From Octopus vulgaris (taxonomy: Eukaryota): 64,000 bases of DNA. The notes beneath the pieces are model-generated. The model did no database searches, was not told the DNA's origin, and saw only the letters and a program-made list of their open reading frames with translations. The DNA is taken from assembly GCA_951406725.2 (NCBI GenBank), contig OX597816.1, positions 179,552,001-179,616,000 on the forward strand, in the 5' to 3' direction. The position numbers and the translations under genes were made by a program. Below, in pieces: positions 135 to 57,459 of the stretch (position 1 is its first letter; each line of letters begins with the position of its first letter).

Positions 135-629
135 GTAAGTTGAATTCTCGACCCGGTTTCGATTTTTTGTCGTAGCCATCTCGATTCATTTACATTCCTA
201 ATATCTTACAGGAAGAAATGACCGTCGCACAGACTCCTGATGCAAACGAATTGTTTCATACGGTCGAATATTCCGTGTGTATTTACCCCTCCAAAACAGC
301 TTAAAGATTCAATTTGTGGAAATTCTTTTTTGGAAAACTATTTCAAATCATTTATGACTTAACTCTCACCATACACCAAAGAATGAAATCAAATTCTTTT
401 ATAAACATTTTCAAATTTATAACTTTATATTACAAAGATTTTATTTATTTTGTTTAGAAATTCATAGAATAGAAATATGCAAAATTTTATTCATTCTATC
501 TTTATGGGATGTTAGACCAATTTACATTAATACACACCTGACATTGTCTTCTCATAGCTACACTTTGTATATTACATAGTTTATAATACTGACCTTTCAA
601 CCCTATGTCATCAGCTGGCATTTAGTATC

Positions 630-4075: not shown

Positions 4076-4751
4076 ATATATTCTTTTCCCTTCAGTATAT
4101 AAATTGATCCAATAAACTTGACTACACCCACATATACATGTGGGTAATGACCTTATAACATGCTTTCCTAAGCTCCTCTGTGGGTGTTGGCTATCATATG
4201 CTATAATACAGCAGGAATTCTCCTTTTACTGGATATATATATGTAGAAATCTGTTAGTGTATACAGAATTCATACAAAAAATAGTTATACAAGTGGGATG
4301 AAGAGGCTTTAATTCAAATGACAATTGTTTCTGTCAATTGCTGAGTGTTTCACATTTACATATTATATAAATATTATGTGAATATGATCCAGCAGTAGCT
4401 GTGTGCCTGCATGTCATTGTTGGTGTCACATAAGGGCACCCATGCCAGTGGCATGTAAGAAGCACTCAGCACACTTAAGTGGTTGGCATGTTAGGAAGGG
4501 TGTCCAGCTGTAGAAACCATGCCACAACAGATAATTGCAGTCTGGGCAGTTCCAGGTCAAACCATCCGGTTCATACCAGCATGAAAATTGGATATTAAAC
4601 AATGATTACCCCCCCCCACACACACACAAGTAGAGGTTAAAATAGCCTCATTAAGGGATAGTAATACCTAATGAATTACTGGTTCATTACCTAATATTTT
4701 TGTGAATTATAAAATAGGTCTAAATATAAATCTTGGTTTATAAATATTCAA

Positions 4752-5046
4752 AAGAAAATGGAGATATAGCATTAATATAATTTATTATCTGCAAAAATTC
4801 AACATATTCTCTTACAGCTGTTTCAATTAAGCCTAAAAGATTAAAATAGCAACAATTAAATCATTATATTAGGCAAATTCTCATCAGAGGGGTAGAAAAG
4901 AAATACCATTAGGTTATTAGGTGTTGTGTTTATATAATGATTTAATTGTTGCTATTTTAATCTTTTAGGCTTAGATGAAACAGCTGGAAGAAAATATGTT
5001 GAATTTTTGTGGATAAATTATATTAATGCTATATCTCCATTTTCTT
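4752..5046. repeat. Fold-back palindrome (arms ~4752-4869 and ~4932-5046), probable Penelope-like terminal repeat remnant
   Basis: aagaaaatggagatatagcattaatataattta...tcattatat is mirrored by atataatga...taaattatattaatgctatatctccattttctt. Contains a hammerhead fold on the - strand. Confidence 0.8.
4808..4892 (-). ncRNA. Minimal type I hammerhead ribozyme (C3-G8 core), degenerate stem I
   Basis: Minus strand reads cccct-CUGAUGA-g-aatt-t-gcctaa-[loop]-ttaggc-tt-aatt-GAAAC-AGCU-GUA-agaga. Stem III (ACAGCUGU) is palindromic; stem I is only partly paired. Confidence 0.6.
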
Positions 5047-5476
5047 ATAAAAATTCACATTTCCCTTAGTTTCCTTTTAGCTGTTAGTAAACTAGGGTGC
5101 AACAGTTTATGTTTATCTTTTTAATGCAGTATATTGTACAGATATCAGTAAATATAAATTCAATTCTGGCAGTTATTTTTTTTTTCTTTCACAGTATAGC
5201 TAAATAGAGTACTGTGTTTAAAATATTTAGACATCTGCATTTGGGTGTATGCGATTTCTCATTTTATTGGTTTTATTTATAAATGAATATAGTTTCTCAA
5301 CAATTTTATGTCTGTGTGTTATTCTAATCCAATTTATTTCTTGCAATCATAAATAAAATTGCTCTTGTGAATTTGCTTTATTTAAAATTTTTTTAATGAT
5401 TTGGTCAGAATATACTGTGAAATATTTTGCTTAAAAATTCTAATTTAGTACATTTTTAAAATTTTATTTTCAGTTT

Positions 5477-11825: not shown

Positions 11826-12639
11826 ATGTGAAAATATGACTAAAACCATTTGCAAACATAACACTTGTATATGTTATATGTAGCTATAAAGGAAATGAAA
11901 ATAAAGGTCAAGGGTTAGTGTGTAATCATTAAATGAATTTATATACATATACTTACTGTATGTATAATGTATTTTTTAAGTTTTGGTTTAACAACTAACT
12001 AGGACAAGAATCTATTTAAATTGTTAGATTTTGGTCTGGTTGTACATGGGGAGTACAAATGAGTACAATTTTGTCTTCCTCACAGTGCAGTTCTCTTCAA
12101 CATAGCTCACAATTCAATTGTTTTGCTTTCTTTTAGAAACATACATTATAGATATATTGTTTCTTGCTATATTTAACTGATTTTATTAAATTGTTGAGTT
12201 TTTTAAGTGGTTTCTGCTACATTTCTTGTAAATTTACTCTAAGAATGTCTGATCTTTATTTTGTTTTTTATCTGTTTAATTAGCTGAGAAATTTAAACAA
12301 AGCAATTTTTATAATCTTTGCTGGGGCTATGACATGATTTAGATATTGAGAAGCAATATCCCCTCTTAAACATGGATATTCTGTTGGAACAAAATTTTAC
12401 TGCAGTGGTTACCATGAGAGAAACTCTCACATTTTTTTTGTGCAAAATGCCAAAGCCGATTTAAGATGAAAGCCAATACGAGTTTCTTTCATTGTAACTA
12501 CTGCAGTAAAGTTTGTACTAATAGACCATCTATGTTTAAGTGGGGGTAAATATTACCTCTCGGTATTAATAATACCTTTGTTTTTAATATATATGGTTTA
12601 GATATTAAATTGAATTTTAGGACCCCTTATAATTTGAGT

Positions 12640-23196: not shown

Positions 23197-25072
23197 TAGC
23201 TGTCTTTTTGGTACAGCTCATTTTGTACTGTCTGTTTTCTGCATAAACTCCTAAAATCTTTGTAATTTGTCCTTGTAATGCCTCCTTATCTACTGTCCTT
23301 GTGACAAATTGTTACTATTATCATAATAGTAATCCTTTCTATTATAGGCACAAGTCTTGAAATTTTGGGGGAGGGGCCAAGTCAATTGCATCACCCCCTC
23401 CATCCCCCAGTGTTTCACTGGTACTTAATTTATCAACCCCGAAAGTATGAAAGGCAAAATACCATGAAGCATTTTGTCCAGTTTACTCCCAATTCTGCCA
23501 GCTTGCCACTAAGTGAGCTTAGGGCTATTTATGTCCATCTGTATGTTCCTGAGTTTAAATAAGTCCCAATTGAGATCTGGGCTCAATATAATCAATTTGC
23601 CTTGTGCCAAAATTTGAAATCATTATTAGTGGATGATGGAAAAAATCCTTTGTATTTCTGCTACCACTCCACATTCTGAGTTCAACTCCCATCAAGGTCA
23701 GCCAGAGGGATAGACGAAATTGATCTTGATAGAACAAAGTACCTGTGAAGTGCTGAGTTGATGTAATTTTCTAACTCCCTTTTCTCAATTACTGGCCTTG
23801 TGCCTAAATTAGAATTATCTTTATTGTACATTTGCTTTTATAAGTAATTTTCAAAATTTTCAGCATTTCTAAACTTAGCTTGTAAGAATTAACATCAATG
23901 AAATGGAAAATTCCCAAGTTGTACAGATCATATCATAAACTTTGGTTAGCTAGTTTCTTTTGTAAAGGAGAGTAAAAAAAAAAAAAAAAAAAAAAAATAT
24001 ATATATTATACAGCAAATTTATTTATAGTAAAAAATTGTAGTTTATCTACCATAAAAGTTGATTCATATTTTTATGGCTATATTCAGTATTGACTGAATG
24101 GTCAACTGCTTTGTCACCTGTTAAGTCATCAATTTAATTTTGAAATATTTTTCTCTTCATCCATCACTAAATTTTCAATGTCTATTCTTTATAATTTAAC
24201 TTTAGAAGGAATTTCTATCAGACTATTCATTTATTTTTAGCTTCTCATTTTTTAGCAAAAGGTTTTATAGGCTAGCAAATGGTTGGAATGTTTAAAAAAA
24301 TTTCTTCTTGTATTTTTGTTTAATTTCAAGTTACATTTTGCAGGGTTTGAAAGAATATTAATGATGTTCAATGTTTGGCCTTCATTGGCACATTGTCTTC
24401 ATGTTGGGTCAGTATACAACAAACAAGCCAACAAGCATTTTACTTGAGAAAATGAATGTAGATGTTATTAAGTGCAGTTGCATACAGCAGACGGCTAAGA
24501 AATTTGACAAATTTTGAAAAGTTACTTGGCAGTGAATGGGTTGACCAGTCACTATTGCAAATGGTATTTATACACCATTTGCAATACTGACTGGTCAACA
24601 GCTGTTGTATGTATTTCGAGCATACTTGAAATAAGAGCACGTGCTTTTGTTCAAGTTGGTGTTTTTGTTTTTTTAATAACCAGTTTCCTCAAATATGCTT
24701 AAATCAGACCAAACGATGAGATCACTTGTAACATTTTAGCTTGTTTCCATTTGTGGATGGGATTTATATTAGATTTCTTAGTTTCTTAGGCTTAAAATTC
24801 ATGAAACTTATGAAAACCAAGCCTGTTTTACTGGCTGTGGTATCTTGATTGTGCTGTTATTTCTTGCACAGATACTCAACCTTCCCTGTGTCATGTACTC
24901 TTTCCACCATGGTTCAGAATGTTGTTGCTCACATTCAAGGTTGTCTGAATGAAAAAGGTGCATTCCAAATAATACGCCTATACTATTAAATCTTAGTTCT
25001 ATATTTAAGAGATGAGGAATTATGTACATTATTTACATTGGACGGATATTTGTCTTCATCTTGTTTGTTGTT

Positions 25073-25118
25073 AACACAATGTTTCAGCTGATACACCCTC
25101 CAGCCTTCATCAGGTGTC
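25073..25118 (-). ncRNA. Minimal type I hammerhead ribozyme (C3-G8), slightly decayed
   Basis: Minus strand reads gacac-CUGAUGA-a-ggctgg-agggtgta-tcagct-GAAAC-AUU-gtgtt. Comparison with the other arm suggests an ancestral GAAACGUU. Confidence 0.7.
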
Positions 25119-25324
25119 TTGGGGTAATTTTGAACCTGAGTTCTCATTCCAAAGGTATTTTTCGATATTAGTTTGGTCACTGCTTGGAATCGAACTCGGA
25201 ATCTTGAGGTTAGTAGCCCGCGTTCTTATCCCCAAGATTCCGAGTTTGATTCCAAGCAGACATGAATAATAATGACATTGAAAAATACCTTAGGAATGAG
25301 AACCCAGGTTTGAAATTTCCCCAA

Positions 25325-25367
25325 GACACCTGATGAAGGCTGGAGGGTATATCGGCCAAAACGTGTT
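25325..25367 (+). ncRNA. Minimal type I hammerhead ribozyme, probably inactivated (GAAA to AAAA plus a small deletion)
   Basis: gacac-CTGATGA-a-ggctgg-agggtata-tcggcc-aaaac-gtgtt. Confidence 0.6.
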
Positions 25368-25678
25368 AACAACAAACAAGATGAGGACAAATATCCGTCC
25401 AATGTAAATAATGTAAATATTTAATCAGTTACTTGGATTAATTTTATAATTTATAGCTATAGAAAATGTTGGTTGATTTTTTTTTTTTTTCCACATCATA
25501 ATTTCTTCAGACTAAAGTTACTGAAGCATATTTCAATAAAGAGAATCTATAGAATGCTAAAATATTGAGATTTATTTTAACCTGATGGTCACATAGTCAC
25601 TGAGAAATCATTTTTTTACTTCATGAATTGAAAAGCGCTAGAAAGGACAATTTATAATTTGAATTGTTTGAATACAAA

Positions 25679-27227
25679 CAACAATGTACATAGTTGTTTA
25701 GTAGGTACTATAGCTGAATCCAAGCAACAATGAACATAGTTGTTTAGTAGGTACTATAGCTGAATCCAAGCAACAATGAACATAGTTGTTTAGTAGGTAC
25801 TATAGCTGAATCCAAGCAACAATGAACATAGTTGTTTAGTAGGTACTATAGCTGAATCCAAGCAACAATGAACATAGTTGTTTAGTAGGTACTATAGCTG
25901 AATCCAAGTAACAATGAACATAGTTGTTTAGTAGGTACTATAGCTGAATCCAAGCAACAATGTACATAGTTGTTTAGTAGGTACTATAGCTGAATCCAAG
26001 CAACAATGAACAGTTGTTTAGTAGGTACTATAGCTGAATCCAAGCAACAATGAACAGTTGTTTAGTAGGTACTATAGTTGAATCCAAGCAACAATGAACA
26101 TAGTTGTTTAGTAGGTACTATAGTTGAATCCAAGCAACAATGAACATAGTTGTTTAGTAGGTACTATAGCTGAATCCAAGCAACAATGAACATAGTTGTT
26201 TAGTAGGTACTATAGCTGAATCCAAGCAACAATGTACATAGTTGTTTAGTAGGTACTATAGCTGAATCCAAGCAACAATGTACATAGTTGTTTAGTAGGT
26301 ACTATAGCTGAATCCAAGCAACAATGAACATAGTTGTTTAGTAGGTACTATAGCTGAATCCAAGCAACAATGAACATAGTTGTTTAGTAGGTACTATAGC
26401 TGAATCCAAGCAACAATGTACATAGTTGTTTAGTAGGTACTATAGCTGAATCCAAGCAACAATGTACATAGTTGTTTAGTAGGTACTATAGCTGAATCCA
26501 AGCAACAATGAACATAGTTGTTTAGTAGGTACTATAGCTGAATCCAAGCAACAATGAACATAGTTGTTTAGTAGGTACTATAGCTGAATCCAAGCAACAA
26601 TGTACATAGTTGTTTAGTAGGTACTATAGCTGAATCCAAGCAACAATGAACAGTTGTTTAGTAGGTACTATAGCTGAATCCAAGCAACAATGAACATAGT
26701 TGTTTAGTAGGTACTATAGCTGAATCCAAGCAACAATGTACATAGTTGTTTAGTAGGTACTATAGCTGAATCCAAGCAACAATGAACATAGTTGTTTAGT
26801 AGGTACTATAGCTGAATCCAAGCAACAATGTACATAGTTGTTTAGTAGGTACTATAGCTGAATCCAAGCAACAATGAACATAGTTGTTTAGTAGGTACTA
26901 TAGCTGAATCCAAGCAACAATGTACATAGTTGTTTAGTAGGTACTATAGCTGAATCCAAGCAACAATGAACATAGTTGTTTAGTAGGTACTATAGCTGAA
27001 TCCAAGCAACAATGAACATAGTTGTTTAGTAGGTACTATAGCTGAATCCAAGCAACAATGAACATAGTTGTTTAGTAGGTACTATAGCTGAATCCAAGCA
27101 ACAATGTACATAGTTGTTTAGTAGGTACTATAGCTGAATCCAAGCAACAATGAACATAGTTGTTTAGTAGGTACTATAGCTGAATCCAAGCAACAATGTA
27201 CATAGTTGTTTAGTAGGTACTATAGCT
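25679..27227. repeat. 46-bp minisatellite, 33 full units plus 1 partial, highly homogeneous
   Basis: Unit caacaatg(a/t)acatagttgtttagtaggtactatagctgaatccaag. Three units have a 2-nt deletion. No unique spacers. Confidence 0.97.
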
Positions 27228-28428
27228 TCTTGATTGTTGTTTTCAACACCACCACTGGGATTGAACTTGACTGTTCAGATTTTCAATTGTTAGTGTTTTG
27301 CTCTATCCCAGAGATTGTATTGAAGTATTTTATTTATCAAATGTCCAGACATAGCTTATAAATGTTTTGGTTGTGAGATAATCCATCTGTGAGCATTGTT
27401 GCTTATTAAGGTTATCTAGAATTACATTGTCTTTCTCCTTTTCTTGTCTATTGATATTCACGATTTTCCTATTTGGTTGATCAGTAGAGCAACTTAATCA
27501 CTACTTATGTACATTGTGTTCAAATTTCATGATAAAAAAAAATGCTAATGCTTCATCTGTTGAAAACTTTTGTGTATAAGCTGGTGAGAGAGCCGTAGGA
27601 AATAGCAACCAAGCCTCCCATCTTCAGCAAAAGTATTAGATAATGCAGTCATAAATATCCCTAAATAGATTAGTTACACTTGCTCAATCAATTGACCTAG
27701 GTAGGGCTAAATGACAGGGACTTCATTATGGTGAGAATTTGTGTAAAAAAAAAAAAAATTGCATGGTCAAGATTAACCATTAATCATTTGATTGGTGAAT
27801 AGTTAGTCTGTATTTTCCTATTGTATGTGATATATGCTAAAGCCAATGGGCCTTGCCAGGAGGAGAGGAACAAAGGTCATGTAAACAGAAGGATGATTGG
27901 TGTGGGCTGGTTTTTGCTTTAGGGCTGTTGCTCATGACAGACATGATAGCTGTGGGAGTTGAGAGAATTTGCCATTAAGTTCTGGTTAGAGGTTAGGTGG
28001 GTAGGGTTCCTATAGATATATCCTAGCTGGAAAGGACTGACATTATGAGAGGACCCATGAAGTAGGTGAATTATTCCTTTTTTACCACCATAACACAGCA
28101 TACATCACTGCTTCAGTGTATGGGCTATGAACCAGAAATTGCACACTCTGGGACATGTGACAAACTGCTTTGTTTCAGTATGGCCCATGTGATCACCCAG
28201 CTGTGTGGGCAACTTGGAGCTGTGTTACCAGGGTGTATCTGGGCAACAATGTACTTCACCCTCTATGGAAGGGGTCTCTAACCAGCAGGCTGAGGATCAT
28301 TTGGTAACTATACACTGTATAGAATAAATTTTTAAATTTCATTTCTATTGACATGTAAAAAAAAAAACTAGATGCTGTGCAGGAGACTGAACTGTTTAAT
28401 GTTTGACTTTCTACTGAATCTTTTCCAG

Positions 28429-56040: not shown

Positions 56041-56152
56041 TGTACTTATGTATGTATGTAAGTATGTATGTATGTATGTAATGTACTTATGTATGTATGT
56101 ATGTAAGTATGTATGTATGTATGTAATGTACTTATGTATGTATGTATGTATA
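55733..56152. repeat. Compound tetranucleotide microsatellites (CAAG/CAAC/CAAT)n and (TATG)n
   Basis: Direct reading. Confidence 0.95.
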
Positions 56153-56352
56153 TAAATGAAAAAAGGCAGGCAACAAGTTGCTTAGCCACATACCTGTTGC
56201 CTGCCTTTCTTATTTATATACAAAATATATATTGAACTTTTATAGAAGTTCCTACCGTTAATGGTTATATTTACATGCCGAAATCTACCAGTAAATAATT
56301 GTTGGTTTTTAAAAAACCATTAAAGCTACAGTTTACTCTTATTATATTACTG

Positions 56353-56888: not shown

Positions 56889-57178
56889 AGTATATATATA
56901 TGTATATGTATTTTTATATCTTGTTATATTTATTTAGTTATATCTCATTATAATGATTGTAATTGTTGTACTGTATTAATGTCTAATCTTAATGCTCTTG
57001 TGTAGTGTTTTAATAAAGTATATGATTCGGTATTATCTGATAGTTGATAAGTGATTTAGATATATTTCTCCATTTTCTCATTTTGTATATATATATACAA
57101 TTGCAGCGTGGAAGGTGTTTATAAGCCATTTAAGAAACACACAAAAGCCGTTCGTTTCACTCCAACATTTAAGTTTAA

Positions 57179-57228
57179 TTTGTCAAAATATTTTCGTCGC
57201 TAAAATCCGCGACCTGTTCACTGACAAA
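57179..57228 (-). ncRNA. Minimal type I hammerhead, G3-C8 variant (mirror copy)
   Basis: Exact reverse complement of 57270-57319. Confidence 0.7.
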
Positions 57229-57269
57229 GCTGCATCTCAGTGCTGCACGGACTTTGATGCAGCACGGAC

Positions 57270-57319
57270 TTTGTCAGTGAACAGGTCGCGGATTTTAGCG
57301 ACGAAAATATTTTGACAAA
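57270..57319 (+). ncRNA. Minimal type I hammerhead, G3-C8 variant
   Basis: tttgtca-GUGAACA-g-gtcgc-ggatttta-gcgac-GAA-AAUAUU-U-tgacaaa. Perfect 7-bp stem I, 5-bp stem II, palindromic stem III. Confidence 0.7.
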
Positions 57320-57459
57320 TTAAACTTAAATGTTGGAGTGAATCGAACGGCTTTTGTGTGTTTCTTAAATGTCTTATAAACACCTTCCACGCTGCAATTG
57401 TTTTCGTTTCAGCACACGATCTCAGATCAAATTACTTGCTATGCGAGTACATCTCCGTA

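Follow-up and report, generated by a model that had tools for sequence, protein, structure and literature searches.

The window analyzed here is a 64,000-nt stretch of the Octopus vulgaris genome (contig OX597816.1, positions 179,552,001 to 179,616,000), and the coordinates below are positions within it. It contains one long inverted repeat at 25018-25422 (self-identity 84%; the left side reaches 24995), made up of a minus-strand arm at 24995-25231 and a plus-strand arm at 25227-25419. The arms are 84-86% alike and the repeat folds with z = -32 against 100 shuffles; the fold-back described in the first-pass annotation is therefore real. Within each arm, part of a tRNA-like head is followed by a short AAT tract, then by a hammerhead-like motif and a tail. 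Positions within an arm are counted from the first base of the head as 0, with the AAT tract collapsed. The features are as follows.

24984..24992, plus strand: possible 9-nt target duplication, left copy (by eye)
24995..25231, minus strand: left arm, a 5'-truncated pLTR from head +16 to the far tail end at +266 (alignment to the family majority)
25073..25118, minus strand: minimal type I hammerhead of the left arm, core retained, stem III palindrome broken (ACGT to ACAT)
25145..25147, minus strand: ATG, putative start codon of the pLTR-ORF frame in tandem copies
25175..25231, minus strand: remnant of the tRNA-Arg-like head, anticodon arm and T arm, A box lost
25187..25195, minus strand: intact B box, GTTCGATTC (sequence)
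25227..25231, no strand: inversion junction, a 5-nt overlap common to both arms, TAACC in the family majority
25227..25419, plus strand: right arm, a 5'-truncated pLTR that covers approximately +35 (in the head) to approximately +230 and stops at the inner cluster of 3' ends
25244..25252, plus strand: B box with a CpG transition, GTTTGATTC (sequence and family alignment)
25296..25298, plus strand: corresponding ATG of the right arm
25325..25367, plus strand: minimal type I hammerhead of the right arm, G12 lost (AAAAC), 3-nt gap at the predicted cut site
25418..25426, plus strand: possible 9-nt target duplication, right copy (by eye)

The repeat had been described as two nested elements, hammerhead arms enclosing a tRNA-like hairpin. 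The supposed outer and inner arms are instead parts of one unit of ~200-240 nt, duplicated head to head. Both arms carry the reported GACAC-CTGATGA and GTGTT, together with stem II; GAAAC is found in the left arm only, the right one having AAAAC. The B-box-like motifs do read toward the hammerhead on their own strands in both arms, though the right one is GTTTGATTC, and the anticodon-arm-like stretch noted on the minus strand is present there. The left arm begins at head position +16 and the right at about +35, and the A box is absent from both. An optional tail extension is found in the left arm and is lacking in the right; the left arm's tail end coincides with a sharp 3' end shared by 79 arms. 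No tRNA was predicted by ARAGORN anywhere in the window, and searching this region against Rfam matched neither tRNA nor hammerhead models. The flanking 9-mers match at eight of nine positions by eye (24984-24992 versus 25418-25426), although they are AT-rich and chance could explain them. We conclude that the fold-back is almost certainly a pair of Penelope pLTRs, both 5'-truncated.

Other repeats lie in the same window. A 46-bp tandem satellite of ~35 copies occupies about 25690-27320, starting 270 nt past the right arm, and is unrelated in sequence. A near-perfect 26-bp hairpin (96% complementary) at 24540-24599 gave weak miRNA-model matches, far under gathering scores. MITE-like fold-backs lacking a hammerhead motif are found at 57097-57401, 4743-5055, 2182-2791, 12357-12548 and 56137-56231.

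Judged by sequence, the family to which these arms belong is a Penelope/Poseidon-type retrotransposon with a single ORF for reverse transcriptase (RT) and a putative GIY-YIG-type endonuclease, the clade being assigned from domain order and similarity. The order of parts is ORF, stop codon, ~30 nt, head, (AAT)n, ATG, hammerhead and tail. Coding sequence lies upstream of the head in several loci, and of 30 loci collected with the endonuclease region as seed, 29 extend past the stop codon into the head (the 29 include the query locus and five near-identical duplicates). The majority ORF is open for 784 codons, in addition to an N-terminus encoded by the pLTR, and has DKG and YVDD motifs. Its RT domain matches Pfam RVT_1 (E 1.4e-10), has 364 relatives at E<=1e-20 and is 44% identical to an Anolis protein (P0087). 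The endonuclease region gave no Pfam match on two decayed copies; by eye it resembles the C-terminal motif of relatives, and PF01541 is carried by one relative with a similar C-terminal motif (P0025).

The pLTRs are formed by partial tandems, represented by 75 exact matches to the tail-ORF junction and also by loci L213-L216, and full-length copies have a direct piece of their own terminal repeat upstream. In the family majority for tandem copies, the frame is open from the ATG through the hammerhead and the tail into the ORF, and P0009 and P0149, two relatives, start with a comparable peptide. The N-termini of P0009, P0016, P0033 and P0149 resemble translated hammerhead cores, read in different frames. 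An adjacent inverted partner accompanied 57/93 and 63/100 arms in two sets, which is the usual Penelope arrangement according to the accessible text of PMC8557442. The 3' ends fall into two clusters, at +226..240 and +263..266.

The unit is abundant in the 2.8-Gb host genome. The window arm had 2481 candidates, and exact patterns matched 1226 times for the intact 40-nt hammerhead, 1394 times for the head and 2904 times for the tail, with no match for the reversed controls. Because the intact hammerhead was exact in 7 of the 77 tail-anchored arms that span the hammerhead, the genome probably holds at least roughly 13,000 arms. A first metagenome scan found nothing; in four runs from other organisms, contigs include the ORF end as well as the head, and one listed piece from those runs bridges the two under a 31-letter rule. 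Shared private variants numbered 1.27 per 100 nt for arms of one insertion versus 1.12 for arms of different insertions; shuffles reached 1.46, and there is thus no excess within insertions that would bear on whether the two arms derive from one or two templates.

Aligned with a tRNA-Arg(ACG) gene from this genome, the head is identical at 48/73 positions and scores 64, compared with a maximum of 41 in 2000 shuffles. Its A and B boxes match the consensus. The cloverleaf has been lost, with acceptor and T stems broken (fold -14 versus -27 kcal/mol for the tRNA-Arg gene), and Rfam gave no tRNA or hammerhead match on five family loci. The head is also 64-75% alike to several tRNA-derived SINE heads and to tRNA-Arg(TCG)-like genes in the flanks, which are further candidate donors. 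A cluster of such tRNA-Arg(TCG)-like genes adjoins a family copy at L153. The proposal that a tRNA-derived head with Pol III boxes consistently precedes the hammerhead holds family-wide, the majority sequence having the full A and B head; four control Poseidon-like loci with a readable pLTR lack it. The likely source of the head is a tRNA-Arg gene or a SINE, from which it would have been captured, supplanting an older promoter region.

Copies of the unit end preferentially at the head. In the unbiased, tail-anchored sample (the first 100 of 2904 tail-pattern matches), 37 arms reached head +4 and 26 of these stopped at -11..+4, compared with 1.0 expected from a background rate computed without the AAT bin, the tail repeats and the bins that adjoin the head or the cut site. 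Two others stopped at -18 and -20, and nine continued to -49 or beyond, into the ORF. The same boundary was seen in a hammerhead-anchored set (93 arms at 90 loci; 24/30 arms reaching the head stopped at -12..+4) and in a head-anchored set (27/30 loci stopped at -14..+16). Among 71 arms spanning the tail-ORF junction (70 loci from 75 matches), none went beyond -8; only four reached the head, stopping at -8, -2, 0 and +3. Arms lacking an inverted partner stopped at the head in 5/11 cases in the tail-anchored set and in 10/11 in another, and within the tail-anchored set the cluster was stronger in arms with an inverted partner. A second cluster of ends at +70..+89 was set aside, as by eye it consists mostly of secondary insertions of other elements into (AAT)n; these rows stayed in the hazard tables and were dropped from the background rate.

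The two 3'-end clusters agree with the two sites of internal RT initiation that define the tail in PAc of Anolis (PMC11167929, accessible text). If the octopus RT likewise starts in the tail and copies toward the RNA 5' end, the head boundary likely marks the transcription start, because 26/37 arms end there and 0/71 junction copies pass it. RNase P-type processing at +1 would be an unlikely origin for this end, with the acceptor and T stems broken. In several junction loci, the sequence passes directly from head -7..-5 to the region of the ORF start. The downstream piece of some partial tandems (L353, L385, L344, L366, L377, L390, L393, L400) opens either at head -7..-5 or at the cut site predicted for the hammerhead, which suggests template jumps from RNA ends.

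We lean toward the view that the head is a Pol III promoter that sets the start of the element's RNA, replacing the usual Pol II one. A and B boxes would direct Pol III to the place where the head boundary lies. The 2668-nt majority sense strand contains no run of four T (T4), for which codon shuffles predicted 2.6 (P=0.043) and a Markov model gave P=0.07. Metagenome controls, comprising 61 related loci (at least 1.2 kb matched; 61 of 79 fetched), had a median of 2.25 T4 per kb, and 4/61 had none. Nine decayed family copies had 0.65 per kb, and 9/38 low-T controls were equally low. T4 absence thus weakly favors Pol III (P about 0.04-0.2). Pol III RNAs are as a rule uncapped and short, which counts against a Pol III start, as does the argument by Kojima 2024 (PMC10886601, accessible text) that autonomous partners must use Pol II. 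In three RNA-seq runs, from an organism that may be of another species, the two strands were covered to nearly the same depth, and no site where RNAs start or end was seen; the pattern fits passive co-transcription and has no bearing on Pol III. None of the listed sequence sets containing the element is recorded as RNA.

Two sequences beside the head could each produce the same end cluster: a TATA-like TTATAAG over the stop codon, ~34 nt upstream of the head, and a TGCCC/GGGCA palindrome that spans the head start. With a Pol II promoter at TTATAAG, transcription would start ~30 nt on, near head -4, in agreement with the end cluster, and the head would be a captured 5' leader. Such a promoter would yield a capped, translatable mRNA, and there is precedent in the accessible literature: D. 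virilis Penelope has a Pol II-type promoter (PMC2377424) and Adineta Pen2a a putative TATA and Inr (PMC3846280). By eye, control loci L263, L269 and L272 also have TATA-like motifs, ~40-45 nt upstream of their hammerheads. TTATAAG is nevertheless a weak TATA match, partly forced by the stop codon; the sense strand lacks T4, and the A and B boxes have stayed intact and correctly spaced from the end cluster though the tRNA fold is lost. We therefore regard a Pol II start at this site as unlikely. The palindrome raises the alternative that RT is halted on a longer Pol II read-through RNA, by cDNA fold-back at TGCCC/GGGCA or by a stall at the head. A mini-hairpin does lie exactly at the head start in many junctions, palindromes at inverted junctions have been attributed to self-priming (PMC3846280, accessible text), and 6/11 tail-anchored arms lacking an inverted partner pass the head. 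When the two sets of partnerless arms are pooled, however, 15/22 still stop at the head; other palindromes in the unit do not halt 70% of arms, and no junction copy extends beyond -8. A structural stall, moreover, would be expected 3' of the structure, and the hazard at +50..+69 is low. A barrier to reverse transcription is thus a quite improbable source of the cluster.

The first-pass annotation proposed a tRNA-ribozyme SINE mobilized by a Penelope-like element. Penelope machinery is indeed involved; the independent SINE was not supported, as the head lies inside the terminal repeat of an autonomous element. Short copies with head, hammerhead and tail could still be a SINE in their own right, with Pol III transcribing solo loci and the Penelope protein mobilizing them in trans, and ~70% of head-reaching arms do start there with both boxes, on a unit whose sense strand has no terminator. 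The accessible texts on schistosome Sm-alpha, which couples a tRNA-derived SINE to a hammerhead (PMC2770079, PMC6765202), provide a parallel. Against this, 64 short arms (a set chosen partly by exact patterns) and 40 ORF-linked arms differ by no diagnostic substitution, and the unit belongs to an autonomous element. PAc RNA, moreover, must reach ~172 nt into the ORF, past the tail (PMC11167929, accessible text), and solo copies lack that sequence. No free head occurred among 30 head-anchored loci: 25 go on into the linker and hammerhead, and five stop at (AAT)n, adjoining other element pieces (context partly by eye). No separate SINE lineage was found, there being no diagnostic sites and the head lying within the autonomous element, and we consider a self-standing SINE very unlikely. 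Because there are no diagnostic differences and no free-head loci, the best reading of the short copies is that they derive from RNA of the autonomous element, with some solo transcription possible.

A start at the head set by Pol III suggests a mechanism. By analogy with anole PAc, the RNA would start at the head of an upstream pLTR, and the element's RT would start internally at the two tail sites and copy back to the RNA 5' end. Most insertions would then be cDNAs of the first ~270 nt of the RNA, the inverted partner would arise by self-priming or template switching, and tandem loci, through read-through, would supply the copies that bear the ORF. Hammerhead cleavage is predicted to require dimerization or assistance by a protein and to affect a minority of templates at most. 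Taken to its full extent, the proposal is that the whole 2.7-kb, terminator-free coding RNA is a Pol III product translated without a normal cap, that its first 270 nt are shed as about ten thousand SINE-like copies, and that the in-frame hammerhead sometimes cuts its template in vivo, leaving a 3-nt scar; we offer this combined scheme tentatively and think it doubtful, as we do a Pol III origin of the coding RNA itself.

In sequence, the family hammerhead has all the features given for minimal PLE hammerheads in the accessible text of PMC4209133, and GAAAC, lost from the right arm, is present in the family majority. Both hammerheads in the window are damaged, the left in the stem III palindrome and the right at G12 and by the cut-site gap. 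Of 399 arms, 78 have a small gap at the predicted cut site, and 58 of these gaps measure 3 nt; bins of 8 nt elsewhere hold 1-8 gaps each, and the neighboring AAC repeat holds 23. In 35/44 gap-bearing pairs, the arms of one insertion differ. Two observations argue against a pure cleavage scar: the reading frame is preserved by the gap, which is also partly linked to two other changes (17/42 versus 30/216 and 7/42 versus 7/216). An inherited variant may therefore account for part of the gaps. In three pooled, partly overlapping sets, 5' ends just past the cut site numbered 23, versus 7 and 11 in the flanking bins; in the unbiased set alone, the excess was not significant (6 versus 3.6 expected, P=0.16).

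Much of this element resembles systems already described, which we compare on the accessible parts of the cited sources. The single ORF with RT and, at its C terminus, a putative GIY-YIG-type domain and the partial tandems of the pLTR recall PAc, Pen2a and D. virilis Penelope (PMC11167929, PMC3846280, PMC2377424, PMC8557442). Other EN+ PLE traits are shared as well: an inverted 5'-truncated partner, an optional tail at one end, a hammerhead over the first codons and two 3'-end sites. In PAc the ORF starts within the hammerhead (PMC11167929), and Pen2a of Adineta has a similar ORF-hammerhead overlap (PMC3846280). The ribozyme itself is nothing unusual, having the extra base between 9 and 10.1, G10.1-C11.1, the palindromic 15.2-16.2 without loop 3 and the dimer-dependent design of minimal type I PLE hammerheads (Cervera and de la Pena 2014, PMC4209133). 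Penelope elements are already known to have this geometry, tail, ribozyme and ORF overlap. Unlike the EN+ PLEs, for which the papers describe Pol II-type promoters, the octopus pLTR has a tRNA-derived A/B-box head ~30 nt past the stop codon, with 5' ends piled there.

Outside the Penelope group, and again within the accessible texts, schistosome Sm-alpha and Sj-alpha (PMC2770079, PMC6765202) also place a tRNA-derived Pol III promoter before a hammerhead and reach very high copy number; they are, however, described as non-coding, SINE-like and often tandem, whereas the octopus unit belongs, as its terminal repeat, to a coding element and is dispersed as inverted pairs. The TRIMp3 elements Cassandra, Helenus and Ajax (PMC10886601) likewise have a promoter derived from a small RNA within the terminal repeat, but are non-autonomous LTR elements, in contrast to the autonomous PLE described here. 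Animal non-LTR retrozymes (PMC7229834; bioRxiv 10.64898/2026.07.22.740005) are similar short, pLTR-related units with a type I hammerhead; they form head-to-tail arrays, whereas adjacent direct copies were found here for only 3/93 and 4/100 arms.

A literature search, with repeat databases, subscription papers and supplements outside its scope, came up with no Penelope element that is autonomous and has a promoter derived from a tRNA; the head could already be listed in Repbase or Dfam. In their accessible texts, PMC3846280 and PMC4209133 do not contain the terms 'tRNA' and 'Pol III', the retrozyme preprint (bioRxiv 10.64898/2026.07.22.740005) does not mention a tRNA head, and the repeat annotation paper PMC13282606 does not mention a tRNA-promoter Penelope element. 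The prevailing view is that retrotransposons coding for proteins depend on Pol II, and that promoters for Pol III belong to short parasites without coding capacity. If the Pol III reading is true, a tRNA promoter in a Penelope terminal repeat breaks this split and gives an autonomous element a route to making SINE-like repeats from its own RNA start. The copies form a natural map of the RNA 5' end and the RT start sites, which adds a second animal in support of the internal-initiation model that was demonstrated in vitro with the anole element. Annotation would mislabel repeats of this kind as SINEs or as pseudogenes of tRNAs.

The family tail, at 25379-25404 in the right arm, also contains what looks like a second, decayed hammerhead (GATGAGGAC...GTC, then AAAT); some copies have GAAT, and the stretch is also read as codons. 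Other elements have inserted into the pLTR's (AAT)n tract, among them a SINE and LINE 3' ends that look Dong/R4-like (insertions at L106, L114, L117, L148, L166, L113, L149, L157, L159 and L143). A separate group of hammerhead repeats (L222-L251), examined as a control, showed no ORF, and no ORF similarity to the Penelope family was found in these loci. They have stem II GAGC/GCTC, are T-rich, lie beside TA microsatellites without a tRNA head, and match a loose pattern 506 times versus 25 for controls.
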